Shown here piece by piece: positions 5,855-55,425 of a DNA stretch of 64,000 bases. The position numbers were made by a program, and so were the translations under genes. Within the stretch, counting starts at the first letter, position 1. Each line of letters starts with the position of its first letter. The notes beneath the pieces were generated by a model that was not told the DNA's origin, searched no databases, and saw only the letters and a program-made list of their open reading frames with translations. Where the stretch lies: positions 806,001 through 870,000 of the forward strand of contig OY253677.1 of assembly GCA_958009085.1 (NCBI GenBank). Direction: 5' to 3'. This stretch comes from Protoeuglena noctilucae (Eukaryota).

Positions 5855-5927
5855 TGGCCTGCCCCGGGTTTGAACCGGGGACCTTTCGATCTGCAGTCGA
5901 ATGCTCTGCCAAGTGAGCTATCAGGCC
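5855..5927 (-). tRNA. tRNA-Cys (GCA), atypical A73
   Basis: Cloverleaf GGCCTGA-TA-GCTC/GAGC, anticodon arm TTCGA-CTGCAGA-TCGAA, T arm CCCGG-TTCAAAC-CCGGG; T5 Pol III terminator at 5833-5837. Confidence 0.9.
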
Positions 5928-15072: not shown

Positions 15073-18000
15073 TTAGGACACATCCAGGGTAGGGGAATGC
15101 AAAGGGGCAGGGGGGTAGGCATAAACAGGAGGTCTGGCAGGGTAGGGAGCGCCAGCGTCGCGCGTCGTCGGTAACGAGCGAGAGAGGGGTCGCTGGTGGT
15201 TGAGTGAAGGGTAGGGCGTCAAGGCGCGGCGAGGGTGGCGGTGGCAGGTGTGGGGCGGGTGTGTCGTGAGGCAGAGTAGCTGGGGAGGCGATAGGCCAGG
15301 TGAGAGGCGACGCGGCGATGGGGGGGGGCGATGGGAGATGAGGGACAGGTGGCGTGAGCGTCACTGCAAGGGAGGGCAGCAGGGGAGGTGAGGGAGGCGA
15401 GGGTGTGCGTAGTACTTTTGGGGTGTGACGTAAGGGGTGGAGAGCAGGTCTTATGTCTGTGTGAAACCCCAGTAGCACCCCCTTGCATTATTATCCTGCA
15501 CCCACTCACCTTCTAGGCATGTTCAAGCTCAGGCTGAGGTAAACAGCCCATGTAATTACACACACGCTCTGTGTCCCTCCCAACACCGACAGCCCTCACC
15601 TTCTTGGGCATGTTCAGACTCAAGCTGAGGTTGATACCCTTGTCCTGCTTGCGCGACGACACGTCCTCCGCCGCGTGACCGTTGCCGTTGCTGCTCCCGT
15701 GGCCATTACCGTTGCCGTGGCCATTGCCCGTGGCGTGGCCGAGGCTGTCCAGGGATGCCCACATGGAGCCTGGGGGTGGGTGGGAGAAGGGCTAATGAAT
15801 AGCCCTTTACACAATTCAGAACCCAATCCACCCAACCAAACTCAACCCCAGCAGCACTGCTGTGACGACGAGCTCCATCCATGCACTCACTAGTCACTAC
15901 CAAACATCATTAACACAGCAACCACCCCGACCATCACCACCCACCCTCCCATCCCCTCACCCGACCCCAACAGCGTGGCCATGGGCGGCAGCCCCCCCTT
16001 GGGCCCCGTAGCCGCCCCGAACCCCCCAAAGCCGTGCGGCAGGCTCTCATCCCCTTTAAACGTCCCAGGCAGCACCAGGCTGCTGGGCGGGCCCTGGAAC
16101 GCGCTTCCGCTCAGCCCACGGCCCAGCGACACGCTGGCGCGACCCGAGCTGCCGCCGGTGTGGAAGGCGCTCCCGGGAGCCGCCGCCTCGTGACCCGATC
16201 CCCCCGCGCCCCTCGCGTGGTTGTGGCCGTGGCCGTGGCCCCCGCTGCTCGTGGGCTGCGACAGGCGCTGGATCAAGTCCTGCATGCTGGGGCTCGCACC
16301 CATGCCGCCCATGCCGCTCATGCCGCCCATGCTGTCCGGGGGCCCCTGAGAGAGCATCGCGAGCAGGCCGTCCGCGTCGCGGTCGGAAGGGGCGGGGCCG
16401 GGGACGGGAAGCGGGCCAGCGGAGCGGGAGTGGCGGGAGAGCGGGGCGGCCGGAGGGGCGGCGCGGCGCGGCTGGGGTGCCAGGAGGGAGAGGAGCTCCC
16501 CGATGGATTGCATGGGCGGAGAGGAGGGGCCGGGGGGTTCCGGGTGCGCCCAGGGGTGGGTGAGGGCGGGGGCGAAGGCGGGGGGACCGGTCGAGGTGGG
16601 CGCGGGGGCCAGTCCGGTGCCCAGGAGCGCCTGCAGTGCGTTGTCGTGGCGAGCGGCGGCGGGGGGCGTCTGCCCGCGTGCGGGCGCGGCGAAGGGGCGG
16701 CGGGGGAGGGGACGGAGGGCGGGTCGAGAGGCGTCGGAAGCGTCGAGGGAAGGGGAGAGGGCCGAGGTGTTGGTGCCCGTGTTGGTGTTGGTGCCAGTGT
16801 TGGTGTGGGAGAGGGACGCGGGGCCGGAAGGGAAGGCGTCGCGGTGCGGGCGGGCCGCGGGGGCCGGGGCGGGGCGGGCGGGGGGCCGCGCGTGGTGGTT
16901 GGCGTGGGTATGCGCATTGGCGTGACCACCACCCATGCCGTCCTGCTGAAGGATCGCCGAGAGCAGCGTGGCGGCGGGGTTGCTGTCTCCCGTGATGAGC
17001 TGCAGGACCTGCAGCAGCTGGTCGGTGCTCAGGCCCAGCTCGTGCTCCAGTTGCTGCAACACCTGTCCCGCGCGTGTCAGGCGTGCTGCCGCCACCACCT
17101 GGGCCTCTGTGAAGGACCCCCACGGCTGCTGCTGCTGCTGCTGTTGCTGCTGCAGGTGCTCGTGCCGCTGGTGCTGCATCAAGAGCAGCTCCAGGACCTT
17201 CTCCAACCCCACCACCCCTGCACCGCCCCATGCCCCCGGGTCAGCTGTAGGGGCCGGGGTGGGTGCGGGGGGGGAAGGCCCGACCTCCCGCCCGCCCGCG
17301 CGCGACCCCCGCAGCGCCTCCGCGCCCTGCATGGCCTGGCCAGCGGTGGCGGGCGGGAGCAGGGCGGAGGCGGGGGCGGCGGTGGCGGGGAGCGGGAGGG
17401 ACGGCGGGGGCGTGGCGGCGCTGGGCTGGGTCTTGGGGGTCTTGGGTGCTTTGCCGTGCAGCGTCTCGAGTGCCCCCAACAGCATGTGCTGATGGGGGAG
17501 GCCGCTCAACAGGCTCTCCGCACCGTTCTGTGTGGACGGTGGGGGGTTGGGGGATGCTGGGTTGGTGTCTGAGCAAAGGTATTGTTGTTCTAGATGGCAT
17601 GGCATGGCATGGCGTGGATGGGGTCAATATCACTCGCACCCCTGCCGCACCCCTGTACCACACTACGCGTCTCAACAACCCCGCAGCACAGCCCTGTCTT
17701 TGCAACCCTCCCCACAACCCCCCTTCACCCCCATCCACCACCCCTCACTCCACTCACCCCACCCCTCGGCACCCCCAGCGGCAGTCCCGTCCCCTGCATC
17801 CCGAGGAACGCCTCAGCGGCACGGCTGCTGGGCACGCCCCGCTCCGCCGGGCTGCCCTTGGCCGAGGCCCGCGTGGGCGGGGGCGTCGGGGATCGCTCCG
17901 CGTCGGAATGGGTGCGGCGCCGGCGCTTGCCGCGCCTCCTCCCCGACCCCACCGGTACGTTGCGGAGGGTGCCGCCCTCGGTCCAGTATCGCTGGCAGGA

Positions 18001-19063
18001 CTTGCACAGGTAGCGGGGCTGGTTCTCGTTGTAGTTGTTGTAGTAGCAGAACTTGGTGTCCGTGGAGGAGCAGCGGGGGCACTGCAGCAGTAGTTGGGGG
18101 ACGGGTGAGGGTGAGGGTGGCCGTGAGGGTGTGGGTGAGGGTGGGGATGAAGGTGGTGGTTGCTTGTAATGGGTGCGGATGGCGTCGCGGCACTATCGTT
18201 GCGGTGCAGGGCGGCGTAGTGGGGCTACCCCCGGTGCGTACTAGCACGAGGCATGGGAGCGACCGAGAACGACAGGTGGGATGCGAGGGGTGGGAGTGGA
18301 TGTGCGGTGCGTGGATATCGCGGAGTAAGAGATCTTGTGCATTGCTGGGATGCCCAAACGCCATGGACACGCGCTGAGGATGCATCGATAAACACGCATG
18401 CATGCATGCGCTCGCCTTCAGGCCCTCCATCTGCAAGCGTTTGTTCGAATTGGCCGCCCGGTCGCCATTCTTGTCGTCCAAGACCTTCTCGGCGCCCTCG
18501 CCTTCGCCCCGCCCCGACGCGGTCGCCGTCCCGACCGCCTCTTCTGCCGGTGGGGGCGCCGCATCCGCCCTGCGCGAGCCCGCGGAGTCCGATGTAAGCG
18601 CCAGCGCGAACGCTGGCATCGGAAATCAACATGCTCGACCCATCGCGACGGCCCATGTGGCGCTGCGAGGCTGATCCAAGCGCGAGGAGGCGTGCGCACC
18701 TGACGTGGTTGGGGATCGTCGAGGCCGTGCCGTTTCGCGAGCTGCCAGACCCGGATTCGGGCACCACAGCGGCGTCGAAGAGCTCTTTATGGGGCGCAGT
18801 GGCCCCCCTCAGGGGCAGCGACGAGCCGGCGCCCCCTGTCCGCTTTTCCTCTTGTGGGTCGCCTTTTCCCGAGGTCGCGGCTCTGTCTCCAGCTCTGTCT
18901 CCTGCGCGCGCGGGCGAAGTGCCATCGATTCGGGGCTACGAAGCCGTGACACAGCGACGAGAGAGGGCGGCGAGGCCGTAGGGGCGCGGAACACAGACTT
19001 CAGCCCCCCGGCCTCGCCTGTCGGGCCTTCCAGCGGCCCGGCCTCGTCATCACGCATCTTCAT
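15073..19063 (-). CDS. Dof zinc-finger transcription factor (both ends uncertain)
   Basis: ~18081-17945 encodes [45 protein letters not shown], a canonical Dof domain; long low-complexity downstream exons with polyQ. Confidence 0.9.
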
Positions 19064-27316: not shown

Positions 27317-28240
27317 GGTCGCGGAGCACGTGCAGGCGCGCGCGAGCGGCGTCAGGGGCGTCGGGGGCGGCGCGGGGAGGGGCGCCGCCAGGGCAGGGCC
27401 GATGACGTCCCTCGTCGCGCACAGGCAGCTGCGTGGGGCGGGGTGACGGGTCGCGCTCGTCCCAGGACGTCTATCTCTGCCGTCTCCGAGCGAAACTGCG
27501 ACAGCCACGCGCGGAGCCGGCAAACGCCCCTGCCCTCACCGCTAGGGCACGCAGGCTCCGCACCTCTGCATCGTGGCGTCGGCCGAGCAAAGAGCCGCGC
27601 AAGCGACGGAAGCGTTACTCAGTCTCGTCTGCGAGCGCGGGGCCAAGAGCTCGCGGTTTCGGGACTCCTCGCACCGTTGACCTTTTCACTGCCCCAATGC
27701 GGGGCGGCCGCGGTCGCTCCCAGCGCGTTCGCCATCACACCGCGCACATCGAGGCGCGAAGTCAATCACGCAATGCCAATGGGGCCAAGTCACGACTCAT
27801 GTGGGCGATGCCACCGACCTTACGCGCGAGGCAGCCTTGTCAGCGGGAAAGGGGCACGTCGGGCGTCCTTAGCCTCGGCCTCCATTCACGACGCGGGACT
27901 GGATGACAGAGCAATGATTGGCGGCTATGATGAAGTCCACAGCTCGCGCAGTAGCTCGTCGCATGCGCGCGCACGGCCTCTGCGCACGCGAGACGACGAT
28001 GTGGTACCGAGGTATCGCAACCAGGATACCATGCGAAGCACAACCCGCGCGGGGAGGAGGAAGCAGGCGGCGCTCGCTGGCATTTCGGGGCGCCAGTAAA
28101 CCGACAGCCCCTTTTCCCCGGCGAACGGAGGGCCCGCCGTAGTTCCCCACCCTGCATGCGCTGTACTGCACGGCTCATTTCCCTGAAATATCGGGACGCG
28201 AGGCCGAAGAGGCTAGGAGGGGGGAGCGACAGGGGGGAAC

Positions 28241-31200
28241 ATGTCGCAGCGGCTTGTGTTGCAGGTATTTGAGAAATACCAGAAGGAGAGGGTGGCGTTC
28301 GTGACGTCGGTGGCAGAGATGGCGACGAGGCCACAGGTGCGCCCGCCTGCGCGCGCTGGGAGACGGGCTCCCCCCTGTCGGCACTCGTTTGCGACGCTCC
28401 GGGTTCCGCCGTGCCATCCGCTCACCCTGGAGCAAGGGATTTGCATCGAATGCTAGGCTGGACGCGTCGTCGCTCCATGCGCGACGGTCCCGGCTCGGCA
28501 TTCGGGGTTGCCGTGGCATTCCCCGGCCTGGGAGAGCGCGTGCCTAGGAAGCCAATGCGTCTTGCTCGTTACCGCATCGTGAGGTGTGTGAGGCGATTGC
28601 ATCTGGGCCGGGACGTCCCCATCCCGCGCCAGAAGCCACTTGGCGCTGCGGGAGACCTTTCGCTGTGGCAGAGGCGCCCCGCTCGCGCCCCGTGCCCGCC
28701 GGCAGTTGCTCGCGTTGCCACTACTAGATCCCAGTGTATATGTTCGTTGCCCTGCTTACCCGCGCGCCTTGCCCCGGGCACCCTCGCGGGCTCGCTATGC
28801 CCGACATCCTCGGCAACATGTGCCCCGTGTCTGGCGCCCCTGTTCCCCCCGCACGCGCCCCGCCTTCTCATGCACTTTCTTTGACGTCTATCGCGACTAT
28901 CGCCGCGGAAGCGGGGTCTTCCGACGCCCCATGCTGCCGTTGCGCGCCCTTTTCCTGTTTGCCACGCTTCTGCCACCCCGCTCTCGCGCTTCTCGCGCTT
29001 CCGCCACCCCGCGCCACATGTTGTGACCTCTTCGTTTCCTCAGAATATCGAGGCCTTGTAACAGGCGGGTGTGATGGCGCTCCTGCGGCCGCTGCTGCTC
29101 GACAATGTACCCAGGTGAGCGCAGCGCCCCGCTCGTCGCGCCCCCGGGCGTCAAATGTTACTAAGCGGCCATGTGATTGATTCCAAACGTCTTCTTGCCG
29201 TCTCCCGCCCGCAGCATCCAGCAGTCGGCGGCCCTGGCCCTCGGGCGCCTGGCCAACTACAGCGACGACCTCGCCGAGGCCGTCGTGCAGAATGAGATCC
29301 TTCCCCAGCTCGTCTACTCGCTCAGGTGAGTCGCGGGCGACGCGGGCACGTAGCGGGACAGCCTGTTGCAATTCGCTTCCTAGAGCAGTGGGCACACACA
29401 CATGCACCGTTCGTACCCGACGGCACAGCTCTCCTTCCCTCGGCCCGACACGGGTCGTCACCGTGCTCGCATTCATGGTATCACACCGTGATGACCTGTC
29501 ACCATCACTTCATCACCATCGCCACCTCCCGCAACCACTGCCACAGCCGCCAACGCCACCTGTCCTCCCCGCGCCCCTCGCCCCGCAGTGAACAGAACCG
29601 CTTTTACAAGAAGGCCGCGGCCTTCTGCCTCCGCGCCGTCGCCAAGCACTCCCCGCAGCTGGCCCAGGCCGTCATCGACTCGGGTGCCCTCGACGCCCTC
29701 GTGGTGTGCCTGGAGGAATTCGACCCGGGCGTGAAGGAGGCAGCCGCGTGGGTGAGTTACTGCTTGTCCCATGGCGACGGGCACGCAGGGAGCCCACTTT
29801 GCCCAGTTGCGACGGGCACGCAGGTGGCATGTGTGGCGTGTCTCCCTGTGTCCCTGTCTGCTCTTGTCCAGCTGACGGCGCGTGCGTGGAGTCCCTCGCC
29901 TGCATCACATCCCTTGGGTGCCACTACTCGACACCCCCGCACACTGCGGCGCCGTTGAGAGCCGTAACACTCTCTCTCACTCTTTATCAGTGACTTCCCG
30001 ATATCCCCACATGCGTCTGAGCAACCCCATCCCCCTCCCCGCAGTCCCTGGGGTACATCGCCGGTCACATGGCCGACCTGGCGCAGCAGGTGGTGGACGC
30101 GGGTGCGGTGCCGCTCCTCGTGCTGTGCGTCCAGGAGCCCGAGCTGTCCCTCAAGCGCATCGCGGCTTCGGCGCTGTCGGACGTGGCCAAGCACACGCCC
30201 GAGCTGGCCCAGGCGGTGGTGGACGCGGGGGCCGTGGCGTACCTGGCGCCCCTCGTGGTGTCGCAGGACGCCAAGCTCAAGAGGCAGGTCTGCGGGGCGC
30301 TGGCGCAGGTGAGGGGGGCGAAAGAGGGAAGGAGAGAGGTCGGCACGTGGGGCAAACCGAACACACTTTCCATCGCGTCTCTTCCTCTGCGTGCCATGCG
30401 TAATTCACGCCCGCCCCTCTCACGTGCCCCTCTTTGCCTCGTGGTCCCCTGGTACCGCACTTTTGTCACTTCCCCACACACGGCACCTCCCTCCTTGCAC
30501 ATCCCCACACCCCGTCCCCTCACGCCCCTCGCCCCCCTGCTCCCCCCAGATCGCCAAGCACTCGGTGGACCTGGCCGAGGTGGTGGTGGAGGCGGAGATC
30601 TTCCCCAAGGTGCTCACGTGCCTGCGCTTCCCGGACGACTTGGTCAAGAAGCACGCGGCCACGGTGGTGCGGGAGGTGGCCAAGCACACGCCCGAGCTGG
30701 CGCAGCTGATCGTGGGCAACGGCGGCGTGGGCGCGCTGGTCGACTACGTCTCGGACAGCCGGGGCAACAACCGCCTCCCCGGCATCATGGCCCTGGGCTA
30801 CATCGCGGCCTTCAGCGAGACACTGGCGCTAAGCGTGGTGGCCGAGAAGGGCCTGCCGCCGCTCGTGGCGGCGCTGCGGGAGGAACAGGAGGACTACATG
30901 AAGTCCGCGGCTGCTTGGTCGCTGGGGCAGATCGGCCGGCACACGCCCGACCACGCCAAGGCCGTCGCCGACACGGGCGTGCTGCCCCAGCTGGTGACGC
31001 TCGAGTCGGACCCGGCGTCCAGCGAGGACCTGCGGACCAAGTGCAAGCGGGCGCTCAAGGCCGTCGTGGCCAAGCTCACGCACCTCCCGGCCCTCGACGC
31101 CCTGGTGCACCGCAGGTACGGGCAGATTTGCATGATATTAGAGACACAGCTGCGGGCGGCAGCTGCATGACAGCAGAGACGCAGCTGCACCCGGCGTGAT

Positions 31201-31524
31201 TCGAACCTCGGACTCTCTCTCTCTCCCTTACCCTTACCCTCGCCCCTCCTCCCCGTCCGCAGCCTGCCAGAGTCCATCATGAAGATGGTCCTGGAGCAGA
31301 TCGGCAAGGTCCTGGCGGCGGACCCGTCCAGCCGGTCGCAGTTCGTGCACTCGGGAGGCCTCGCGGCGGTGCAGCAGATGGCCGAGGCGCCCGGGTCGAC
31401 GCTGCGGGAGGTCGTGGAGATCATCAACAGCAACTACCCGGAGGAGATCGTCAAGTACTACTCGCCGGGATACTCCCAGCAGCTGCTCGCGAAGCTCGAG
31501 GCCGCCGTGCAGCCCACGGCTTGA
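28241..31524 (+). CDS. PF16: Axoneme central-apparatus armadillo-repeat protein PF16/SPAG6, 7 exons, in-frame TAA in exon 2
   Basis: MSQRLVLQVFEKYQKERV..., NIEAL*QAGVMALLRPLLLDNVPSIQQSAALALGRLANYSDDLAEAVV, EIVKYYSPGYSQQLL; closely matches Chlamydomonas PF16 as recalled. Confidence 0.95.
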
Positions 31525-31771
31525 TGTGGCTGGTTGTGAGGGCCTGCGACGCATGGCAGAGATTGAATCCGGGGCCGACGCTCGCGTGCATCGTAACGTG
31601 GCTGTTTTTCAAGCTGCACGGAGTGTGCAGAAGCGCGTGTCGTGGTCTCCCGGGCTCGCGGCGGCCTCGGTCTGACATGGGGGATGACTGGCGCAGACGG
31701 CTGGGGCCTTGTCCCGGGGGCCGATCCGTGTTCCGGGAACAAACCCGCTTTGCGCGATTCTCGCCGCGGAC

Positions 31772-34009
31772 ATGAACGTCGTCAAGGGGGCCGTGGCGAA
31801 CCTGGGCGCGTTGGCATCCGGAGTTCTGGGTTTGGGAAAGAGGCGCGAGATGGAGCCCAAGCGCGTGCTCATCACCGGCGCGGCAGGTGCGACCGTCGTG
31901 TTATCATCGTTTTGGCCGCTCGAGGGAACCACCCAGTCCCGTCCTCCCCGGATCGCGACGCGCGAGGGACCCGCCCTGGGCCCGGCCACCGCGCTCCGGG
32001 AGGGGCTTTTTCGCGCCTCACTTGGTCTCCGATGGGCGATTGATGACACCAAGACTGACCGGACCGACTCTGAGGCCTCCGTGTCGCTTGGACCGGGCGC
32101 TTGGATGGCCTCAGCGTGGCTGCAAACAACGGCGTCGCAGCTGGCGCCTGGGCCGCATCGGGCGCGGATATGTGCTGCTCTGCGTGGTTCAGCTGTTCTC
32201 TTGCGCCGATTTACGGATTACAGCGGCATTTCGTCCACGCACGGCGCCTGTGCGTGCGTTTTTGCTCATGCGGGGCACGCCCGCCTCTCCGGCGCGCCGG
32301 GGCCGCCGGGGGCGCCTGAGACCTTTTGGATGGCGTTTCATATGCACATCGCACACCACGTGCTCCCCATACCCTGCCGCGCGCGCTCGCAGCTCGCGTT
32401 TGGGCCCGTCTCCCCTTGCCGCTCTGTTACACGCCGCGGGCCGCGCTCCGCCACTCCGCTGAGCCCCGTTTCGGGCCATGCTCGCTGCATTACGTACCAA
32501 GCACGCGTCACAACCTCCCAAGCTTCCCCGAGCGCTTGCATCCATCCCCAGACGTGCGTGACCCTCGCAGGCCAGATCGGCTACGTGCTCGCCCCGATGG
32601 TGGCGATGGGTGAGATGCTCGGCCGCGACCAGCCCGTGATCCTCCACCTGCTGGACATTGAGCGTGCGGCCAACCCCCTTAAGGGATTGGAGATGGAGCT
32701 CATCGATGCTGCGTTCCCCCTGCTGCGGGTGAGACTGGGAAATGGACATCACATTGACAATGGATCAATGCATTGGAGATGGAGATGGAGGGGTGGGCTC
32801 ATTGATGCACCCTGTTGCACCCAAACAGCCCCTCCCCCACCCCTCTCGTTCACCCCATCTCACACCCCCACCCCACTGCCACCCACTCAGGGCGTGGTGA
32901 CCACCTTCAGCCTGGAGGAGGCCTGCAAGGACGTCGACATCGCCGTGCTGGTCGGGGGCTTCCCCCGTGGGCCGGGGATGGAGAGGAAGGATCTCATGGC
33001 CAAGAACGCCCCCATCTTCGGACCCCAGGGCAAGGCGCTGAATGACTTCGCCAAGCCGGACGTGCGGGTGCTCGTGGTCGCCAACCCCGCCAACACCAAC
33101 GCGTGGATCGTGGCGCAGGTGAGGGGGTATGCAGTGTATACCTCACATCGAAAGTCCCACACCACCGCCACTGACCACACAGCCGCTCAGCCGCTCCCCA
33201 CAGCCACTCACCACTCACACCCCCTCCCCCCCCAGAACGCCCCCCGCATCCCCCCCTCCCACATCACCGCCCTCACCCGCCTCGACCACAACCGCGCCGT
33301 GGGGCAGGTGGCCCTGCGCGCCAAGGTCCCCGTCAGCGACGTTCGCAACGTGATTATCTGGGGCAACCACTCCTCCACCCAATACCCCGACGTCAATCAC
33401 GCGAGTGTCCGCGGCAAGCCGGCCAGGGAGGTGCTGCGGGATGATGCCTATTTGGACGGTCCCTTTGTGAGCGAGATCCAGCAGAGGGGCAAGGCGGTGA
33501 TCAACCTGCGGGGCGCGTCGAGCGCGCTGTCTGCCGCTCACTCGGCGTGCGACCACGTGCGTGACTGGGTGCTGGGCACGCCTTCTGGGGCGTTTGTGTC
33601 CATGGCGGTCATGAGCAAGGGGGAGTACGGCGTGCCGGCTGGGATCGTGTACTCATTCCCCGTCAAGTGCAAGGTGTGGAACGAGAGGGGTTGTGTGTAA
33701 TGTGTAACTAGACATGGCTTTGTTTGCAGTAGTAGTAGTGCCCAGTGGGATCGTGTACTCATTCCCCGTCAAGTGCAAGGTGAGGGATGATGGGCTATGG
33801 ATGAAGTGACTTGACGTAACGTCATCCGTTCCCGTTACATCATTAGTCACTCTTATATCTCACCTCACCTTCCATCGTTCTCGCAGAACGGGGAGTGGGA
33901 GATTGTTCAGGGCCTGGACATCGACGCTCGCTCGCGTGGCCTCATGGACGCCACGGCGCAGGAGCTGGTGGAGGAGCAGGGGGAAGCCAAGGCGGCGCTG
34001 GGGATGTGA
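31772..34009 (+). CDS. MDH: NAD-malate dehydrogenase, cytosolic type, 5 exons
   Basis: [67 protein letters not shown]; ends TGA. Confidence 0.95.
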
Positions 34010-34448
34010 GAAGAGAGAGATGGGGATATCGGGTGCTTGAGGCGCAAAGTGTGTTGTGGAAGAGTACATGAGATGGGGTGGTCGAGGAGCAGGGGGGAGC
34101 CAGGGCGGCGCTGGGTATGTGAGGTGTGAGAGATGGGGATATCGGGTGTTTGGTGCAACACGTGTGTGTTGAAACGCAACGTGAGTTTCAAAAGACACGA
34201 TAACGATTGTGAGTGGTCCCGATGTCATTCAAACGCCAGCTTGCGATGCCATCGCTAGGGTGAAAGGGTGAGGCCATCTACCGTAGACTATCTATGTTAG
34301 TCACCCATGCATGAGACGCTGACATCGCCTCATCTGCCCTCTGCCCCATGCACTGCACATAGATAGTCTACACTAGTCTCACCACCATAAAGCCCAACAG
34401 TCCCGCATGGTGCCTGGCATAGCATATATCGTCTAATCGTCCTCGTCC

Positions 34449-36770
34449 TCATCGGGAACCTCTATCAATGGCAGCTTGCCATGACTCCTGATCACCGGCA
34501 GCCCCACTCCCCCCCGCCCCACCAGCCCCACTCCGCCCTGCCCCACTCCCACTCCCCCCCCTGTCCCCAGCCCCACTAACCCCACTTGTCCCCGCCCCAC
34601 TCGTCCTAACCCCACTCTTACTCCCCTCACTAACCCCACTATCACTTGTCTCACTCCATCTCATCCCACTCGACTCCGCCCCACTCCCCCACTCCCCCTC
34701 CCCATCCCCACGCCTCTCCCCAACCGCGTTCCCTCGCCCGCACCCCTCCATCTCCCCCTCAGATGACGAGGTTTCTGACAGAGAGGTGGGCACCGTGCCA
34801 CGCCCACTGCCCCCTTTGCCCCCCTTCGCACCCCCCCTCCCCGCCCCTTCCATCTTCACACCCCCCCGTTGCAATGGCACCTTCAGTGGCAATCCCTTGC
34901 CACCCCTGCCCCCCGCCCCCTTCTTGCCACCACCCCCGCCACCCTTATTGCCACCCTTGCCACCCCCGCTGCCACCCCCACTGCCACCCCCGTTGCCCCC
35001 CGCTCCCTCCTTGCCACCCCCCTGCTGTGCCCGCTTGCCCTTCCCCCCATTGCCCGCGCGCTTTTCGACGTACAGGGCCCTGCACGCAGCGACGGCGGTG
35101 CATGTTTGAAAAATTACAGAATTATAGATAGAATTATGTAATAAGATGTAGAGCATCCAAGGCACGTGATTGCTATCCATGAGCTCGTCCAGCGTCGCCC
35201 CCACTCCCTCCCCAACATCCCTCATATCTCATACTACCCAAGTTAATATCCACATCATTTATCATTACTATCCCATATCTCGTATCCCTCACCCGAGGTC
35301 GTCCAGCATGGCCCTCACGCCCGCCTCCCACCCCTCGTGCCACTGGCCCCTCAAGTCCTCACCACCCCCGTGACGCATGCCCACTTGAGGGTAATCACGC
35401 CAGAAACCCTCGGGATAGGCTGCGGGGGGAGGGGCCAGCAGGTGCACGTGAGTGTGGGTGCGGGTGAAGAGCAGGCGGGACTAGTCACATGAAACAGAGA
35501 TTAAGAGTTGTGCTTGCCAGGAAACACACAATCTCCGCCTGCCAATCACGCCGCTACCTCCGCAGCCCTAACCCTGCGCCTCCCTTCCTTGCCCCAGTCA
35601 CTCACTCACGCATCCACACCCCCGCCCCCCGTCAACCACATCCCCCCGCTCTAACTCTCACTCACTCCAAAACACCACCCCAGTCCCGGCACCAGCTGCC
35701 CCCCCACCGCCCTTGCCCTACTCACGCAACGGCCACTGCCCCGCATCTTTCGCCGCCTGTCGCTTTTCCCAATCCTCCCGCAGCTCTCTCCTCCGCTCCT
35801 GGAACTCCACGAACCTCTCCCGCAGCGTCCGGACCGCGCCCGGGCCTTCCAGCACCCCCTCTTGCATCTGCGGGGATCGAACCCGGGATCGCTCGCGACG
35901 CGGCCCGGAAACGACGGCCCTCAGCCACGACATCGTGTGCATTTCCTCACGTCGCGGTCGAGGTAGAGGGAAACGGCCTTCAGAAGCTTGACAGTGGCTT
36001 TGTTTTTGATGAAATCATCCGGCCTCTCGGGCGGTTCCACCGTCAGGCCGCCGGGGCCAAACTTGTACTTGTGCCCAAACACCGGGCACTCGTACGACGT
36101 GTACCTCATGCCGGATGCGTTCACGGGGACATACTTGTGAATTTTCTTGAAGAGAACTCGCTGCGGGAGAGGACAAGCGGCGTGGCGGTCGGGCCGGCGG
36201 GCGCGGCAGGACGAAAAACACGCAGCCGACCGAGCAGACGTCCCCGTGCCCGGCTCCGCAGCCGATTTCGACGGAAACGAGCGCGACTCACGCACCTCTG
36301 ATTAAGGGTCTTCCTCGTCATCCCAGACGATCTCGAAGGTGCTCAAATCGGGGAACTGGGACTGCAGCGCATGTACAAGCGCAGGCCTCACAGTCTTCCA
36401 GGGCGCCGCGATGAATGGCAAGCCACTTTGTGTACAACCAATAACTTCTCCCAGCGCCGCCTCACCGGGTCGACGCGCCGGTTGTTGGTGGAGGCGACGA
36501 AGGCGCTCTTGATGAGCCCCTTCCTCCCCGTCTCGGGGTCCCGCGCCTCGGCGCCGATGTACTGGCGCCATTCCTTGATGTCATGGTACGGTGTCGTGTA
36601 CCTGCGCGTGCGAAGAAAGGCTCAGAAGCTCTCTCCCAACTGCGCCTGCCGCAACGATGCAAACCGCGATCCGTCGACGGCCCTCACCTGGCCACAGGAT
36701 GACCACGCGAAGGGGCCACGTTCACGGGATCGCCGGGGTCGCCGGCCGACGACTGAGTCGCAGTCGTCAT
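34449..36770 (-). CDS. Hypothetical protein with Tudor-like N-terminal segment, ~7 exons, in-frame TAA in exon 3
   Basis: Phase-consistent splicing gives ...YIGAEARDPETGRKGLIKSAFV...TFEIVWDDEEDP*SERVLFKKIHKYV...; Gly/Ser-rich tail ends TGA. Confidence 0.6.
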
Positions 36771-37255
36771 ATCATCGACGGTTGCCTGCTCTCAGATGCA
36801 CGCAGCCCTAGCACATTTCCAATCGCCACCCACTCCACTTGCACGCGACTACCCATCGCGCCAGGGAGCCGATTGCAGAAATGCGCGTCGAGGTGTTTTG
36901 GCAACTCGTTGTCAACGCCAGTGTTTCGGACCCCAGGGCAGGGGATTCGAAACCTTTTCCGAGCGTCACCGCTGCGCCGCTGTGTTCAACAGCCGCTGCG
37001 GTAACGGCGCCGCGCTGCCGATCAACGTCACGCGCGTGCAGTGCGCCTGGGACATTCCAACTAAGCCTGCTAAGAGCGTCACTCCCGGAGCGGCTTGCGC
37101 GCGTCCAGGTCGAGCTTGATGTGATGCGTCGTGTGCTCCACGGCAGATCCCCTCCCGCGCCACTGCAGAGGCGGACTGCAGTCAACAACGGGGGCGGGAC
37201 GTGAGCGTGGGAGGGGCAGGGCAGGGCGGCGTCGCCCTCAAAAGTGCATGGGCCA

Positions 37256-40200
37256 TCAATCGGCAGTGTGGCTGTGATTGTACTTGTGAAAGATAGCCCC
37301 AGTCAAACTCTGACAGCGACATGGGTGACACCGACATGCGCATATGACTGGGTCCCCCACCACCCGCACTGCCACGCACCGCACGCCAGCCGCCTGCGCC
37401 AGGAGGGCCCCCGCCGCCGCCAGCGCCACCGACTGCGCCGCCCGCGCCACCCAGCCACGCCGCCTGCGCCCCGCCGTCGCCGTCGCCGCCGCCCCAACCG
37501 TGCCGCCCTCCCGCTCCGCATGCCCAGCCGCCCCCCGCCCCTCTCCCACAGCCTTATCCGCAACACCGCTCCCCACGCCACTCTTCGTAACACCGCCACT
37601 GTCACACGCACGCCCCGCGCCGCTCTTGACACCACCCCTAACGTCGCCCACCAGCGCTGCCCCACCCATCGCCTGCGCGAGCCCCCTCACCACCTCATCT
37701 CTGGCAGAGCTGCTTTCCTTGGCCTTCCTCGGCGTCGCGATGCCGAGGGCGTGCTTGAGGGCTCTGCCCAGGAGGGGGGAGGAGAGGGGCGGGAAGGGCA
37801 AGGGGTGGGGGTGAGCAGCGATAGGGCCGGTGCGCGCGACACGCTTCCCGCCACCGTTGGCCTGGCCGGGGGTGGCGCTGACGGGGCTGGCGGCGTCAGG
37901 ATCGGCGTCTTCGACATCGGCGCTCGGGTGGCTGGGCTTGACCGGGGTGACGTGGATGTGGCTGAGGGAGTGGGAGCTGAGCTGGCGGTGGGGGGCGACG
38001 GGGGAGGGGGGGGCGGTGGGGAGGACGTGGGGGAGGGGCTGCGGGGGAGGGGGAGGGTGAGGGAGGGTGTAAGGGACTGGGTGGGGGTGGAGAGTGTGGG
38101 AATGGGGTGGGTGGCGATCGGTGCGTACGTGTCTGATGGTCTTGAACTCACACGGCTCGTGACAACAGCCGGCATGCGCCTACCTGTCAATGCACGTCCA
38201 CTGAGCAATCCCCACACCACACACCCATCCACACTCGCCATCACATCCATGCACGTCCCATGCTAACCCCACACCCCACACCCCCCCCCTCACTCACCCG
38301 GCTCGTGAGCGCCTCCGCCGCGTCTCCGTCCGCATCCCCCACTTCGACCGCAAGGCCGCCCCTCCCTGCATTCGAGACCTTGCCAGACACTGTGCTCTTG
38401 TCAGAAACCTTGCCAGAAACCATGCCGGCCTCCTTGGGGCCATTCACCGTCACGGCTGCCTCCAGTGCCACCACGCGGGCGCGGAGGTCCGAGGCCAGCT
38501 GGGCCGAGGCCTGGGGGAGTGGAGATGAACAGAGGATAGAAGGCGGGAGTGGGGGTGGTGAGGGTGGGAGGGACTGAGCTGGGCTAGAGTGGGTGTGTGT
38601 GTATGGGTGAGGCAGTGCCGTGTCAGCCCACCACATGCCCTCATGCCACCCACCCTCACCTCCGCCCTCGTCAGCCGCTCCACCACCTCCGTTTAATCCG
38701 CCTCCGCCACCCCCGCCCGCCCCTCCGCGCCCAGTCCCTTACCACCCGGCAGCGTGGCACTGGGAGCGCCTGCTGACCCGTAACGCGGCCCGGGCGACGC
38801 TGATGCCGATACCGACAAGCCTGATGCGTTATTGGCAGACACGTGCGATGCAGTCGTCGATAACAGCGCTGCGTTGACATTGGCCGCGATCATAGTCGAT
38901 GGCAGTGTTGCCTTGGTCATGGTCGCCTGGGGCGACGTCTGCGATGACGAGGCGGCCGTCACGCGCGCCCGCAGCCACGCCACCTCCCCCGCCGTGCGGT
39001 CGCCGAAGGACTGGGGGAAATGGGAGATGAAGACATCAGTAGTTAATGCCCCTTGACAACGACCTGGGGTGGTTGGTAAGGATGTGACCACCACCCGCAC
39101 CCCACCCCACAGCTCCCGTCCCTTCACACCCCTCACAACAACCATGTCGCATTTCACACCCACCCATCCATTCCCATACCATCCCAAACTGACCTTGGCG
39201 TGCCGCAGCGCCTCCACGCGCCCCCTCAGCTCCCGCACGTGCGCCATGGCCGCATCCCACGCCGCACGGGCAGCGGTGGAGTTGGGGGAATTCGAATTCG
39301 AGTTGGGGATTTGAATTTGAACGAGGCGCTTTCAGGGCCGCGGACGAGGGGGGGCTGACGGCGACGGAGCTGCGGGGAGGGGTGGGGTGGGGTGGGCGAT
39401 GGGTGAAACGTGGAATGTGGTGTGATTTAAAGATGAAATTTGCGCCCACCGGCATGGCATGACATGGAGTGGCATTGTACAACGCGTCCCATCCGCATGG
39501 TTTGCCACCCATCACTTATCCTCCCCCCTCACCCGTCCCTCTCGGCCCTCTCCCGCGCCCTTTCCGCCGCCACCTCTGCGTCCCTCAGCTGACGCACGCG
39601 GGCCGCGAAGCACCTGGGGGGGACAGACAAGGGATATGAAATTCAAAAATACAGAATTTGAATATTTCACAGGCTCCCTGGGCACTTGACACAGACACGA
39701 TGCGCAAAGGGCCCTACCCTCACTTGCCTCAGTAGCAGCCCAAGTGCCAATCCTAACCCACACAACTGAACCTGTGTCAACCTACTCATACTTCCCAAGT
39801 GTGTACTTTCCCCACCACCGCCACCACTCACCTCTCCACTTCCTCCCGGTCCCTTCCCCCCCCCTCCCACGCCTCGGCCAGCGCCAGGATGCGCCGCCCC
39901 AGCTGCGCACGCGCCGACCGCCCCGCCCGACGTTCCTCCTCCAGCAACGCGCGAAGCTTAACCACCTCGTCGGTGGCAGGCGCAGGGTTGCCGTTGGCAG
40001 TGACGGCATTGGCAGTCGCGACACTCGCGGTGATGTCGTTGGCAGTGGCAGCAGTGGCAGCCACGCCATGGGCAGTCGCGTCATTGGCAGTGACACCAGC
40101 CGGGCCGCCGTTGTCCGCAACAGCACCACCACCCACCGCCGCCGCCCCTGCACCGACCGTCACAGCTGCACCGCCATCACCGCCGTGCTTGGCGGGCGCA

Positions 40201-43200
40201 TCGCTCACAGCCACACCAACGCCGTCCATGCCGCCATCGGCCTCCACCACTCCCTGCAGCGCGTTTCCCTTACCCTCAACCCCCATCTCCGCCCTCCCTC
40301 GCTCCTCCCTCTCCCTCTCCACCCCCGCCCGCACCGCCTCCCTCGCCGCCACCGCAGCGTCCCTTTCACTCTCTGCCTCAGCCACCCTCCCCACCGCAGC
40401 ATCCCTCTCGCTCTCTGCCACCACCGCCCTCTCCACCGCACCGTCCCTCTCGCTCTCCACCAATGCCACCCTGTCAACTGCCGCGTCCCTCTCACTCTCC
40501 GCCGCCCTCACTGCCTCCCGCATTGCCGCCACCTCCGCCCTCGCCTCCCCCAGCTCACCCCGCAGACGCGCCACCGTCGCCTCCGCCACCGCCAAACGAC
40601 GCCGCGCCTGGGGAAACAGACAGGGGGGCAATGTTATCAGGGGAGTGCTCATTACCAGTGTTAAAACCAGCGACCACCCCACCATCCGTCAATGATGATC
40701 CCCACAGCCCTTTGCACCTCCCCTCACAATACACCACCCCAACACCATCACCCCCCATTCACCTCCTCCACCTCCCCCCTGGCAACCTCCACCGCCCTCG
40801 CCATCTCCCCTGACCACAACCACCCCGCCCCAACACCATCACCCACGACCCACACTCCCCTCACCTCCTCCACCTCCCCCCTCGCCACCTCCACCGCCCT
40901 CTGCATCTCCTCCCGCCCCTCCGCCGCCCTCGCCGCCGCCTCCGCCACCCTCGACATCTCAATTTCCATCTCTCGCTTAGCTGCTATGGCTGCCTCCGCT
41001 TGCTTCAGTAGCTCTGCCATTTGGGCTCTCTGGGCAGCCACGGCGGCCTCTGCCTGGGCCCTCAGGTCAGCGACTGCCGACTGGGGGGGTGGGGAGAGGG
41101 GAGGTGTGAGATGAGGGGTGGGGAGATTGGTGGGTGTGTGACGACGGGTGGGGAAGGAAGATGAGGGGCAGGGATTGAGGCCAAGCGGGGTGATGAGGGG
41201 AGCACGGAGGTAACAGAATAGAGAGGGATGTCGGTGAGGGTCGACGACGCGTCTCACATGGCACCTGCCACAATCATCTCCACTCATGCATACACACCCC
41301 ACCGCCCCTCAACCGCACCCCACCCCCCACCCACCTGCCGCCCCTCCACCTCCCCCAGCCTCAATGCCAACGCGTCCCTCTCCCTCTCGGCCCCCTCCGC
41401 CCTCTCCCGCTCCCTCTCCGCCCCCTCCCTCGCCTCCACCACCGCCCTCTCCGCCACCTCCGCCCTCTCCCGCTCTCTCTGTGCTTGCCCCCTCGCTGCC
41501 TCAGCTTCCAATGCAAGCGCGCCCGCCCTCGCCTCTGCCGCCCCCACGTCTGACTGCAGCTGAGTCAGGCGGGACTGGCACGACGCCAGTTCTGAAGACA
41601 GGGAGCGGCGCTCGGCCAGGCTGGCGGCCATCTGGGGGGGGAATATGGTAGGCGGTGGGGGTGGTTGGCGGAGGTGCGTGCGGGGGTGTGAGTGTGATGG
41701 CATCACCCATCACCCATCTACCACATGACATCCAACATCCACATTGATTACAATATCTATCTCATACAATCACCTCCCCCTTCCCCCTTATTACCTGCTC
41801 TTCTAACTCCCTCTGCATCTCCCCCAGCTGCCGCTCCAGCTCCCTGGCCCGCCCCACCCCCATCGCCACGTCCCGCCCCGCCCCCTCCCTCTCCGCCGCA
41901 ACCTCCGCAAGCAGAGACTCCATGCGAGCCGCCTGCGCCTCGCGCTCCGCCAGGCGGGCAGCCAGCAGCGCGCGGGACTGCGGGGGGGGGAGGGGGTGGT
42001 GGGGGTGCTGTTGGGTAGCGATGGTGTGGTGGGTGGCAGTGGGTAGCACAGCGTGTGGGGTGCGGTCGAGGCCAGCAGTGGCAGTCATGGCGTTGCTAAC
42101 AGTCGAGTAGCAGTCGAGCTGCGCTGGGCGGTGCAATCAATTGCTAGCGGTGGTGCCCATGACATGACCTTCGCCCCGACCCCACCCACCCCACGCCATC
42201 ACCCCCTCACCTCCGCCGCCCTCCCCGCCTCCTCCACCAGCTCCCGCGCCCTCCGCCCCGCCTCCGCCGCCCTCGCCGCCGCCGCCGCCACCTCGGCCCT
42301 CGCCGCCCCCTCCGCCGCCCTCGCCGCCACTGCCTCCGCCTCCGCCCTCGCCGCCCGCCCCGCCGCCGCCTCCGCCGCCCTCGCGGCCTCCGCCGCGCGC
42401 ATTTCCGCGTCCCCCGCGCGCACCCGCTCCGATTCCATCTCCGCCCTCAGCCCCGCGGCCCGCTCCTCGGCCCCCAGCAGCTCCGCCTCAAGTGCCTCCA
42501 CCCGCCGCCGCCCCTCCCCCGCCGCCCGCTCCGCCCCCTCAGCCCTCGCCCGCGCCTCCGCCAGATTCGACTCGAGACTCGCCGCCCGCTCCGCCGCCTC
42601 CGCCGCCGCCCCCTCCGCCCCCGCCAGCGCCTCCAACAAACGACGCGCCTCGGACTCTGCGACAGTGGGAGGTGGAGCACGGTGGATGTGAAACGTGATG
42701 CGAAATAGTGGGAACGCAGCATGTAAGTGACAATAGCACCAATACTACCGCTAAACGACGGTATCCATGCCACCGACTCTCGCCGCCATCCACTCCCTCA
42801 TCCCCACCCCGCACATAACCCCTCACTGTTCCTAGCAACCCCCCCCACCCCCACCCCTGCTCACCCGCCTCCCGCAGCCTCGCCTCCCACGCCCCCCCCT
42901 CGGCCCTCGCCCGCCCCTCCGCCGCTTCCAGAGCCTCCTGCAGCGACTCTGCCCGGAACACCGCCTCCTCCGCCACCCCCCGCAGCGCCTCGGCGTCCCT
43001 CGCGCCGCCCTCCGCCTCCGCCAGCGCTCGCCGCAGCGCCGCCACCTCCGCCGCCGCCCCTTCCGCCGCCGCCGCCGCACCTCTTTCCGCCTCCGCCAGC
43101 CGCCCCGCCAGCGCCGCCCCTTCTGCAGTCGCCGCGTCCGCCCTCGCCCGCTCCCTCGCCACCTCCGCCTCCACCTCCGCCAGCCGCCCCCGCACCCCCT

Positions 43201-44511
43201 CCAGCGCCGCTGACGCCCCCCGCATCTGCTCCAGCACCGCTGCATTCTCTCGCTCGTACTCCCCCAGCGCTGCCCTCATCTCCTCCGCGGTGGCCTGTGC
43301 CTCGGCCAGCTTGCGCTCGAACCCCGCGGCCCGGGCTGCGTTGGCAGACACCTGGGCGGAGAGGGACTCGACCTCGCGGCGGGCCTCTGTGGTGGGGGGG
43401 GGAGAGGGAGGGAGGGTGGGTGGGGGGGGGGGGAGAAGTGTGGAGTGACTGTGGAGTGGCCAGTGAGTGAGTGAATCATCCCCAGCTTCGCTCTCCCATC
43501 CCCAGCTTTCTTTCCCACTTACCAGCAACCCATTCACCCCATCCCCGCCCCTCACCTCCCAGCCGCACCTTCAGTGCAACCACCCTCCAAAATCACTCCC
43601 CCACCCCTCACCTCCCAGCCGCGCCTTCATCGCCGCCACCCACCCCCCACTCACTTCCCAACCCTCCCAACAACCCCATTCACCCCCAATTACCCCTCAC
43701 CTCCCAGCCGCGCCTTCATCGCCGCCACCTCCCCCCTCGCCGCGTCCCTCTCCGCCCTCAGCGCCTCCGCCTGGGCAGGGGCCACCCACCCGGCCCTGCG
43801 AGAGCCCCAGGCGCCTTTTGGGGCGTCCTCCGCGGCCTGGGGAGAGGCAGGCGATGGGGATGGTCGATGTGTTTTGACAGGTGGAAGCATGTGTTATTAC
43901 TAGCTGATCCGTGGAGTGGTCAATTGAAAGCTGAGCATTGTGCAGTACTTGGAAGACTTGTCGATGGAAAAGACACAAGCAGTCGACCGAAAGCCGGCCA
44001 GTGCAATCACAGTAGTACAAAGTAGCCTGCGCCCATCACCACCTCCCTTTGAACATTGAACATCAGACATCGACTCGCCTGCAGCCTCGCGTCCATGTCC
44101 TCCGCCTCCTCCCACAGACGCGCCACCTCCGCCGCCCTCGCCTCCGCCAGCTCCCTCGCCTCCTGCACCTGGGCCTGCAGGTCCGCAACGCGGGCGCGTA
44201 ACGCATCGCGCTCCTCCTGACTGGCGCGGTCGTCGTCCTCGGATGCCTGAGGTAATTGGGGCGGGATTTGAATATCAACACTACCAGAGCTGATCGCTTT
44301 TGCATTGGAGTCCGCTCTGGGTGAGGCACCCAGAATGCAACCGATGAGCAGCGGCGGGTGTCGTGGGGAGCCCTGGTGGTACGTCAATCCGTGTGCTTGT
44401 CTTGAAAAGCACAGGCTGGCGAGAGTCATGGATTGGTTCGACGATACCAGGGAGGCAATTTGCACTGCTCGCGGCGCGCGTTGTCACCGGGGGGAGGGGC
44501 TGGAGGGACAT
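37256..44511 (-). CDS. Very long Ala/Glu/Arg-rich coiled-coil protein with C-terminal hydrophobic segment, ~12 exons, in-frame TAA
   Basis: Successive heptad-rich exons with matching splice phases (e.g. 44246-44079, 43387-42864, 40607-39831); C-terminal AAQSVALAAAGALLAQA; ends uncertain. Confidence 0.7.
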
Positions 44512-48617: not shown

Positions 48618-49382
48618 ATGGCGGGGCGTAGTCACTACGACGTGATAACAGGCAAGTGCTCGCAAGTGCTCACGGCCCAATGTGCGGGCCAGGAGACCAT
48701 CGCAGGCCTCCCGCCTGCTCCCTCTGGCGCATCGACTCTCCAGCTGTCCATGTCTGCGCTTGCATCTGCGGGTTCCCACCTACGGGTTTCCGCGGGTGGC
48801 AACATGTTTGACCCCGGGAAGAAGCAACTCGCCCGCGACGCCTGCCCCCCGGCGCCTCGCAGGATCGACCCAGGGCCAGGCGGGTGCATCGACGCGGGGC
48901 GCGGAGGACCCGGGCATGCGTATGAGCACGATCCCGCTCGGGGACATCATGTCGGTGCAGCGGGAGTCGCACGTGCTCGCGGCGCACAGCAAGGAGCCCG
49001 CAATGTCCTATCGCTCCAACCAGCGCATGATGAGGGATCGACAGAAGCACGTCCGGCAGCGCTTGGACGCCCGGGACCTCTACACGCGGCCCGTGACCGA
49101 GTCACAGCGCATCGGGTGGTACCAGCAGGTCAACAGCCCGCAGAAGCCGCAGCACGGCAAGGTCGCCTGCAAAGAGACCAAGGTGATGCGCGGCATGCGC
49201 GGCGAGCTACTCATAGCACGCAGCATGAGTGGCCTGTGTGCTTGAAGTAAAGCGCGTGCCCTGTTGCTCCTCGCCCGCAGCTGATAGAGCACGCGATGCT
49301 GACCCAGGACATCAAGCCCGCGGCCACTCCGGCGCGGGTGCTCCTGGCGGGCATGGACCTTAAGCACAAGGGAAGCGCATGA
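48618..49382 (+). CDS. Small putative ciliary microtubule-inner-protein-like protein, 3 exons
   Basis: Exons 48618-48651 (GC donor), 48863-49182, 49281-49382; motif YTRPVTESQRIGW...HGKVACKETK resembles the P.T.SQ.IGW motif of FAM183/C20orf85-type ciliary proteins. Confidence 0.55.
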
Positions 49383-49926: not shown

Positions 49927-52456
49927 TCACAGGATGATCTCTGGGTGCTCCACGGAGGCCTTCAGCTCCTTGTGGGGCAGCACCACGGCCCCATTGAGGA
50001 GGAGCTCGTCGTGCACAAACACATCGGTGCCAAGCACGGTCGACGCCTGCACCAGGGACTGCGGGGGGGTGAGAGAGGTATCAGTGAGTGTATATGATGG
50101 GCAGTGAGTGACGCATGGGCGCCAGTGTCAGCATTGCAGTGTGGTGCGATGACACGGAAGGAACTGCACTTGCCCCCCGCCAACTCACGCTGCACCCCAG
50201 TCAGCAACAGCCCGCCCCACTCCATCTCCACTCACCCACCGCCCCAGTCACCAATAGCCCACCCCTCTCACTCTTTCCCCACTCACCCACCGCCCCACGT
50301 GGCAGTCCCACCCCACGATGGAGTCCGTCACGCGTGCGCAGTCGAGGACCTTGGCCCCCGACATGACGAAGCAGTTGGACAGGCGCACGCCGCGGCCGAT
50401 GCGCACGCCCGCGCCCACGGAGACGTTGGGGCCGATCAGGGAGCCCTCGCCGACTGCGAGGGGGGGTGAGTGGGGGAGTGGGTGGACCACAGAGGTGGAG
50501 TGAGAGTGCCAGAGTGGGAAGTTAGTCGGGCCACAGAGGCGCGGTGCCAGCGCCAGTGCCACCCCACCACCGACGCTGCCCTCGCCACCACTAGCATCGC
50601 TGTAGCTTCTACTGCCACCGCTCACCCTTCACGGATGGGTCCATGATGACGTCCCCCTTGATGTTGTGGCCCTTTGCCAGCTCCTCGGGGTGACGCTCCC
50701 TGCGAACCGTGACAGAGATGAGGGTGTAAGGAATTGCGGATATGACAGGTGCGGCGCCGCCAACTTGCCCTGTGCTAGTCTTTACAACCAACATGCTTAC
50801 CACACCACCAACACAAAGCCACGCCTGCAACACCCTCGCTCACCCCATTCTGCCCACCCCACCCAACCACCCCCGCCACGCACACCCCCACCCCCTCACC
50901 TGAGGCTGCCCAGGTGCAGCCGGAGCCCCTGCAGGTAGTCCCTGGGCTTCCCAATGTCCATCCAGTACCCCCCCAGCGTGAAAGCGAACAGCCGCCCCGC
51001 CGCGGCGATGGCCGGGAACGTCTCTCGCTCAATCGACGTGGGCCGCATCTCGATGCGCTGCAGGACCTCGGGGTTGATGATGTAGATGCCCGCGTTGATC
51101 TTGTCGCCCACGAACTCCTGCGAAGGAGTCGTGGGTGAGGGGAGTGGGTGCAGTGGGGAGAGGGGGGTGGCTGCGATGTGGTGGATGTTGCATACCCCTC
51201 CTACTCAGCCACACCTTAGGATGCTCCGTAACCCCTATGTACACCACCACCTCATATTCATAATCACCCCGATCACCCAGTCACCTTGGGCTTCTCCACG
51301 AACCTCTCGATGCGGCTGTCCCCGTCCATCACCACCACGCCGTACGCCGACGGGTCCTCGACCTTGGTCACCAAAATCGTCGCCTCGGCCCCGCTGCTCT
51401 TGTGGAAGGCCAGCATGTCCGTCAGCGGGTAGTCGCAGATGACGTCGGAGTTTAAGACGAAGAAGGGGGTGCCGCTGCCGTCGACCAAAATGTGGCGCGC
51501 CAGGGCGAGGGGCCCCGCCGTGCCCATCGGCTCCTCCTCCCGGGAGACGGTGATCTGAGGAGAGTGGATATGTGGATACGGGTGAGAGTGGATATGGAAC
51601 GGGAGAAGTGGCATTGCTGACGGTAATCTGTGCAGGGGCCCCAGGGATGGCCTATCCGTTGTACTGAGAGGAAAGGGTTAGGGTGACTATCTATGCAGTA
51701 AACAGCGAGTGTCACACAGACATCGCATTCACCGTTAGTTCTCCCCATAACAGCCAGCCCAAGTGCCCCCCGCATGCACAATATAGTCTCGCCTTGATGT
51801 TGAGCTTCTGCGACCACTCCTGAATGAACGCCGCCATCACGTCCGGCTTGTAGTTGATCGCAAGAATGACCTCATCGACGCCGGCCTCCTTCAACGCGAT
51901 GATCTGCGGAAGGGCACCCGGGTGGGCATGCCAAAAGGCCATGCGAGCCGATGCCCGCGGCCCCTCGCTCCTCAGAAGCAACGCAGCGCACCTGGTGCAC
52001 GACCATGGGCTTGTTCGCGAACTCCACGAGCGGCTGCGGGTGCGGAGAGGGGCGCGGAGGCGTCCGCGAGGGGGGATGCCCCCTCGAATCTTGGGCCAAG
52101 GGCGCGGGGGCCGGGAATGTCCGGGGCCGGGGCCGCGCGCGGCGGGGCAGGCGGCCGTGCGAGTGCCGCGGATCGCGAACGAGGCGTCGCGGGGGCGCGG
52201 GGGCCGGCGCGGGAGGGCGGGCGCGGCGGGGGGCCAACACACGAGGGCCGCAGGGTGGGCAAGTGGGCGTGGCATGCGCGCGCGAGGAAAAGGTGCCCGC
52301 GCGAGGATTCCGTGCGCCTCATCGGCGGCTCCCCCGCCACGCAGAGAAGCGTCGCGGCCTGGCGGGCGCCGCGGCGAGGCGCGGCACCTTGGGCACGCTC
52401 AGCGTCAGCGGCCGGAGCCGCGTGCAGTAGCCGCCGACCAGGATGAGGGCTTTCAT
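49927..52456 (-). CDS. GMP1: Mannose-1-phosphate guanylyltransferase (GDP-mannose pyrophosphorylase, GMPPB/VTC1-like)
   Basis: [84 protein letters not shown]; ends TGA. Confidence 0.95.
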
Positions 52457-52864
52457 CGCGTCGCGTCGACTCCGTTCGCGTTAGCGACGGATGGCGGCCA
52501 CGGAAGCGCGGGACGATCGGCAAGCGGCGCGCAGGCGGACGCGGCGGGCGTTTGGGGAGCGGGCTCGCGCGCGGCGGGGGGCGGGGCGATCCCGGGCGAT
52601 CCCTGGGGCTGGAGTAGCGTCCGACTGGCAGGCCTCGGAGGGGCACGCGTGGAGATGCGCAGATGCCCCTGCCCCGTCGGCGGACCTGCGCGCGATGCGC
52701 CGGACTGACGTCGCCAGAACTCCCGCGTGCGGCGCCTTCTTCCGTGCGTCGGGCCGCGCATTTGCGACGTCTTTTCGCGTCTCTCCGGCCGGCGCCTGAC
52801 CTCCGCGGCCCGCGTCCCGGGCGGAGGGCGCCAAGAAAACCGCGGCCACCAGCGCGCCCGCCCA

Positions 52865-54783: not shown

Positions 54784-55357
54784 TCGTGTGGCTCCACCTG
54801 ACCTGGCCGCGGGCGGGGTGGCCACGCGGCGCGCGTGGCGGGTGCCTGTGGGGCGACCGCCTGACGGGAGAGCGCCAGCCGTAGGCCCTTGGTAGTGAGG
54901 CAGGGGGGTGCGGGTCGAGGCACAGGAGAGGGCGAGCGTGGCGTCGGCCACGCTCGTGCACTCCCCGGTGCTCATCAGACCCTGCTACCTTGCCGTGGCG
55001 CAGCCACGGCGCAGCAGCTGAGGGTGGTGAGGGCCATCAGGATCCTCACCGCACGGGGTTGGCCCATACAACGAAGGGCGCCTGGTACGGGCGGGAGTGT
55101 CGCGCAAGGAGGCGCTGCTTTTCCAGTCCGGCGACGCCCACGCAATACGTTATGTTTAAAGCAGGTTGCAGCCCTGCCTGGGCGCAGCCACGGCGAGGAT
55201 CGGGGCCGTGCGGGGCCCAACAGGGGTGCGTCAGGAAAATCAAAATAAAATAAAAACGGCGCACTCCCGCCTCACGCAGCCAACGCCAGCGCATTTCTTA
55301 GGCAATGAGGAGCGCAATAATGCAAAGAAAAAAAGAAAAGAATGCGAGATGAAAAAG

Positions 55358-55425
55358 AAGGCCCGACGAGAATTGAACTCGTGACCATTCGATCTGCAGT
55401 CGCTCTACCTCTGAGCTACAGACCC
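55358..55425 (-). pseudogene. tRNA-Cys (GCA) lacking 4 nt of the 5' anticodon stem
   Basis: GGGTCTGTAGCTCAGAGGTAGAGC-GACTGCAGATCGAATGGTCACGAGTTCAATTCTCGTCGGGCCTT; U73 and T5 terminator (55352-55356) retained. Confidence 0.8.

Follow-up and report, generated by a model that had tools for sequence, protein, structure and literature searches.

The PF16/SPAG6 gene of Protoeuglena noctilucae, as it stands in the window (the whole 64-kb stretch of DNA analysed here), is interrupted by an in-frame TAA at codon 38. Apart from this one C-to-T difference, which is either a mutation private to the assembly or an error in a base, the gene is normal and expressed. We found this stop in one assembly only, none of the other data sets examined from this alga having it, and a reading of it at the level of the species fails because four of four public runs and three public proteins have Gln at this codon.

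A complete PF16/SPAG6 gene interrupted at codon 38

In the flagellum, PF16 serves as the armadillo-repeat scaffold of the central-pair microtubule C1. In the window it is encoded on the forward strand by seven exons (Table 1), whose spliced coding sequence comprises 510 codons, 509 of them intact, with a GC3 of 0.94 and the TAA at codon 38 as the sole stop before the terminal TGA. Its six introns are all of the GT..AG type, and each of the six joints was found in RNA contigs of the metatranscriptome runs X10 and X12; these include 28336/29044 and 29114/29215, which show that exon 2 is real and confirm its frame. A previous sequence-only reading of this DNA had reported an in-frame TAA in exon 2, which these joints bear out, and had delimited the exon as 29044..29115; the start was right, whereas the true end lies one base earlier, with the GT donor at 29115-16. 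From 29044 the window reads AAT ATC GAG GCC TTG TAA CAG GCG GGT, i.e. NIEAL*QAGVMALLRPLLLDNVP.

The assignment to PF16/SPAG6 made in the sequence-only reading is well supported by homology. When the large PF16 exon was used as a query, 957 proteins were retrieved at E<=0.001 among 8000 scored candidates, the top one being P0001, a protein of 510 aa from a contig that we judge to be transcript-like because it is only 1684 nt long. P0001 is 100% identical to the window across the large exon, and equals the whole spliced product except at codon 38 and for A458V. It aligns from residues 1-507 to residues 1-507 of the Chlamydomonas PF16 chain (PDB 7n6g/7sqc; E=4e-284), and is colinear with mammalian SPAG6 (PDB 9ijj; E=1.9e-216). 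Moreover, Pfam Arm matches (PF00514) occur in the open reading frames over exons 4, 5, and 6 (E 7e-7 to 7e-12), and the large exon shows 86% identity to Volvox and 81-83% to trebouxiophyte proteins. The window gene therefore has the colinear arrangement and armadillo repeats of Chlamydomonas reinhardtii PF16 and mammalian SPAG6, together with their identical NIEALQQAG motif, except that a TAA stands where they have the codon for Gln38; unlike Chlamydomonas, its host is a GC-rich marine green alga. The Chlamydomonas motif given in the sequence-only reading is indeed NIEALQQAG in the PF16 chain of PDB 7n6g/7sqc.

The conservation claimed for this Gln also holds, column 38 being Q in 92 of the 103 homologues of 480-540 aa that were aligned out of 129 proteins. 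We also retrieved 80 related metagenome loci, none of which comes from the same alga, the best being L002 (95% identity) and L001 (90%). A peptide pattern locating codon 38 matched 69 of the 80, the other 11 being omitted, and the matching loci have CAA (37), CAG (31), or ATG (one) as this codon, and never TAA or TAG. It is CAG in L002 and CAA in L001, and the acceptor position is common to the window and both loci. L001 has no intron between exons 2 and 3 (L001:1480-1640, where NVP runs directly into SIQQSA), an intron that is present in the window and in L002. In the population sequence, the CAA at Gln38 is the sole CAA among the 31 Gln codons of PF16 (GC3 0.94), and lies 15 nt past the acceptor.

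Table 1. Position of the PF16 gene, of the sites discussed, and of other features in the window
Feature	Position	Strand	Remarks
TAG gene end, RlmI-like RNA methyltransferase	1261-1263	-	homology-defined
tRNA-Cys(GCA)	5855-5927	-	
Dof zinc-finger factor	17728-18192	-	E=3e-32
PF16 exon 1	28241..28336	+	ATG at 28241; codons 1-32; equals P0001 residues 1-32; RNA joint 28336/29044
PF16 exon 2	29044..29114	+	codons 33-56, final codon split; RNA joints at both ends in X10 and X12
In-frame TAA, codon 38	29059..29061	+	T at 29059 private to the window; C (CAA, Gln) in public runs
Proposed alternative acceptor CAG	29062..29064	+	in frame, +21 nt; unused in the RNA contigs seen
First in-frame ATG past the TAA (Met43)	29074..29076	+	candidate reinitiation site, 12 nt after the stop
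PF16 exon 3	29215..29325	+	RNA joints
PF16 exon 4	29589..29751	+	RNA joints; synonymous polymorphism at 29721 (TTC/TTT)
PF16 exon 5	30045..30308	+	RNA joints; polymorphism at 30070 (ATG Met156 / ACG Thr)
PF16 exon 6	30550..31115	+	RNA joints; Pfam Arm repeats
PF16 exon 7	31263..31524	+	RNA joints
TGA gene end, PF16	31522-31524	+	homology-defined
TGA gene end, malate dehydrogenase (MDH)	34007		homology-defined
FAM183/SPMIP11 ciliary inner protein exon	48649-49242	+	
TGA gene end, GDP-mannose pyrophosphorylase	49927	-	homology-defined
GDP-mannose pyrophosphorylase	49930-52480	-	
PAP-fibrillin domain protein	53310-54422	+	
TGA gene end, fibrillin-domain protein	54423		homology-defined
tRNA-Cys(GCA)	55357-55425	-	~50 kb from the other tRNA-Cys

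Codon 38 in other data from the same alga

Four public runs were compared with the window over 27800-32200: X1, a marine metagenome (DNA, depth 8.2), X7, a run labelled with an organism name and of unrecorded kind (depth 237), which behaves as DNA because all introns are covered without joints, and the RNA runs X10 (depth 204) and X12 (depth 29). All four have C at 29059 (CAA, Gln), and each gives a single contig that carries all the depth at this position. Similarly, Q38 is found in P0001, P0125, and P0128, three proteins of 510 aa in P0001's 90% cluster, whose contigs of 1681-1689 nt are transcript-like. An uninterrupted frame of ~510 aa is consequently present in the four runs and the three proteins, and absent from the window. 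The sequence-only reading had itself named a C at 29059 as refuting its finding, and C is what every data set compared has there; the stop is therefore not a property of the species.

The T at this position is seen in the window sequence alone. An exact scan of metagenome contigs with the 31-mer around 29059, with Y at the site, gave no match, and no indexed run contains all sampled words of the PF16 gene, the best share being 0.97. Among the nine members of P0001's cluster there is no PF16 protein of ~468 aa starting at Met43; such an absence carries little weight, because nonsense-mediated decay or absence of the strain would look alike.

Origin of the premature stop

We lean, by slightly more than an even chance, towards the T at 29059 being a nonsense allele that the sequenced strain or haplotype really carries, be it of recent origin, acquired in culture, or rare in nature, because the window mixes real population alleles and has no private indels. 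At the synonymous position 29721 it has the allele of X1, against X7, X10, and X12, and at a 3-nt indel at 27992 that of the RNA contigs, against X1 and X7; its T at 30070 sets it apart from all four runs and is shared with P0001. Since its alleles are shared with different runs, the window is a distinct real haplotype from a population that varies, rather than one of these runs copied with noise. Over 4.4 kb only two differences from the four runs are private to it (29059 and the intronic 29951), and none of them is an indel, G and C homopolymers included, a pattern more in keeping with real divergence than with long-read noise. A consensus or base-call error, in which case the cells carry CAA and the gene is fully functional, is nevertheless a serious possibility whose probability we place somewhat short of even. 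It would account for the C in all four runs compared and the Q in three transcript-derived proteins, and would spare from inactivation a highly conserved gene of which the population clearly makes RNA (word depths of 204 and 29); a free-living flagellate should indeed be under selection against a nonsense allele in such a motility gene. In some assemblies it is not unusual to meet one consensus error in 64 kb, and among sequencing or PCR artefacts C-to-T is a frequent one. However, the window otherwise behaves as an accurate copy of its haplotype, and an error rate that is high enough would normally also have produced indels.

The remaining explanations have far less in their favour. A stop at codon 38 of 510 would also be found in an early-stage pseudogene of a lineage that is losing its flagella, which we consider extremely unlikely: the 510 codons have no second lesion, GC3 is 0.94, the splice sites are all preserved, spliced transcripts of the gene are present in the population, as RNA contigs of two runs, and the FAM183/SPMIP11 ciliary exon is open. 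With one lesion, intact codon bias, and expression in the population, a decaying PF16 was rejected, in agreement with the earlier statements that the rest of the gene is undecayed (509 codons intact) and that a second ciliary-type gene is intact. It is very improbable, too, that the T is real and harmless, through a splice 28336/29065 that drops seven codons (NIEAL*Q) in frame and gives a shorter working PF16. The CAG put forward as an acceptor in the sequence-only reading does lie in frame, 21 nt past the used one, but its use finds no support: the X10 and X12 contigs show 28336/29044 only, the joint 28336/29065 being absent from these contigs, which carry the C allele and belong to a kind of assembly that drops rare isoforms. 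Moreover, the used acceptor comes first and has the better pyrimidine tract (cttcgtttcctcag), and the seven residues that would be lost rank with the best conserved ones of the N-terminal region (N 91, I 89, L 84, and Q 92 of 103). There is no evidence of regulated splicing at this site.

Genetic code of the alga

If TAA were read as Gln, either by a variant nuclear code of the ulvophyte or ciliate type or by efficient programmed readthrough, T and C at 29059 would be synonymous. The stop lies exactly at a conserved Gln, one transition away from CAA, and of the five gene ends defined by homology in the window, four are TGA and none is TAA. Nuclear codes in which TAA and TAG specify Gln occur in certain Ulvophyceae and in ciliates, and the known codes that reassign TAA to Gln reassign TAG too. 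The likeness to these systems consists in a stop at a conserved Gln position; the window differs from them in offering a single case, which is missing from the other data of the same alga, and in using TAG as a terminator. We find recoding scarcely credible here. Among the Gln codons of PF16 are 30 CAG, with no TAG and no second TAA, standard-code gene calls on public transcripts yield the full 510 aa, and the window holds no suppressor tRNA, the only two tRNA genes in its 64 kb being both tRNA-Cys, with no tRNA-Gln (UUA/CUA).

The four TGA ends alone would leave a TAA/TAG-to-Gln code formally possible, but the RlmI-like methyltransferase gene ends on TAG. The final exon of this gene (55 aa) matches the NCBIfam profile NF046099 over positions 343-389 of 391 (E=2.6e-4), in direct continuation of the preceding exon (positions 277-336, E=1.1e-15). 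A search of 1.84 billion representatives yielded 122 proteins at E<=0.001, of which 105 end at the same residue as the window ORF. The same C-terminal exon has no Pfam match at E<=10, and its match in the PDB is weak (3c0k, E=0.51). Because 105 of 122 homologues end exactly there, at position 389 of 391 of NF046099, TAG acts as a terminator in this gene. A TAA terminator was not found among the five gene ends checked in the window, and we infer that TAA is also read as stop. Overall, a TAA/TAG-to-Gln code in this alga is very unlikely.

PF16 ends on TGA in both L001 and L002, which is of no help on the question of the code. A scan of the window for in-frame stops, of low power, gave six hits, at least three of them antisense to known exons and none in a recognised gene; it required 15 coding-like codons on each side, so that the PF16 case, with five exon codons upstream, is undetectable by it.

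Predicted effect of the T allele

If the T is real, translation of the allele would end after 37 residues and its mRNA would probably be exposed to nonsense-mediated decay, as expected from a stop that lies upstream of five exon junctions. At best, translation might reinitiate at Met43, a position that is M in 96 of the 103 aligned homologues. The paper PMC9113940 describes PF16 as critical for the assembly and stability of C1, and its N-terminal helix as the element of dimerisation. A product starting at Met43 would be devoid of this helix, giving a loss-of-function pf16 allele, and the T allele, if real, should be null or nearly so. There is a slim chance that the T is real and that the strain swims all the same by bypassing the stop, either through the CAG acceptor, with a PF16 that lacks NIEALQQ, or through reinitiation at Met43.

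Classical pf16 loss-of-function mutants have paralysed flagella and an unstable C1 microtubule. The window allele, if the T is real, would affect the same gene, through a nonsense mutation near its start that removes the dimerisation helix; it differs from them in being a putative allele known as a sequence only.

Variation within PF16 and features of the neighbouring region

Residues 156 (Met/Thr, 30070) and 458 (Ala/Val, 31363) are found in each of their four possible combinations among the window, P0001, P0125, and P0128, as recombination in a natural population, or a mosaic assembly, would be expected to produce. In the spacer between PF16 and MDH (31730-31816 of the window), X7 splits into short alternative contigs with depths of 162 versus 57 and 222 versus 7, which suggests variation within the sample or a repeat.

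In MDH itself, the 3' end of an exon and its GT donor (33632-33684) are duplicated 106 nt downstream (33738-33790) with 89% identity, so that there are two candidate donors. Another duplication, of 107 nt (33966-34072 and 34079-34185, 79% identity), spans the MDH stop codon. Just past this gene, the region 34000-44000 has a strongly negative GC skew (~-0.3) and contains proline/threonine-rich, low-complexity open frames on the forward strand; the ORFs tested in this region have no Pfam match.

Significance

The stop at codon 38 is either a base error or a private mutation of an ordinary kind, and nothing new biologically, and there is no evidence of recoding or of a new genetic code. It has little weight for biology and some for annotation: gene prediction on this assembly will give a PF16 model that is truncated or mis-spliced at codon 38, and the site merits a flag. 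Should the stop be bypassed in a swimming strain, the N-terminal dimerisation segment of PF16 would be partly dispensable. The PF16 of the species is normal and expressed. A real T would make the sequenced strain a marine green alga that is null for pf16 and should not be motile, which would be of modest use to those who work with it.
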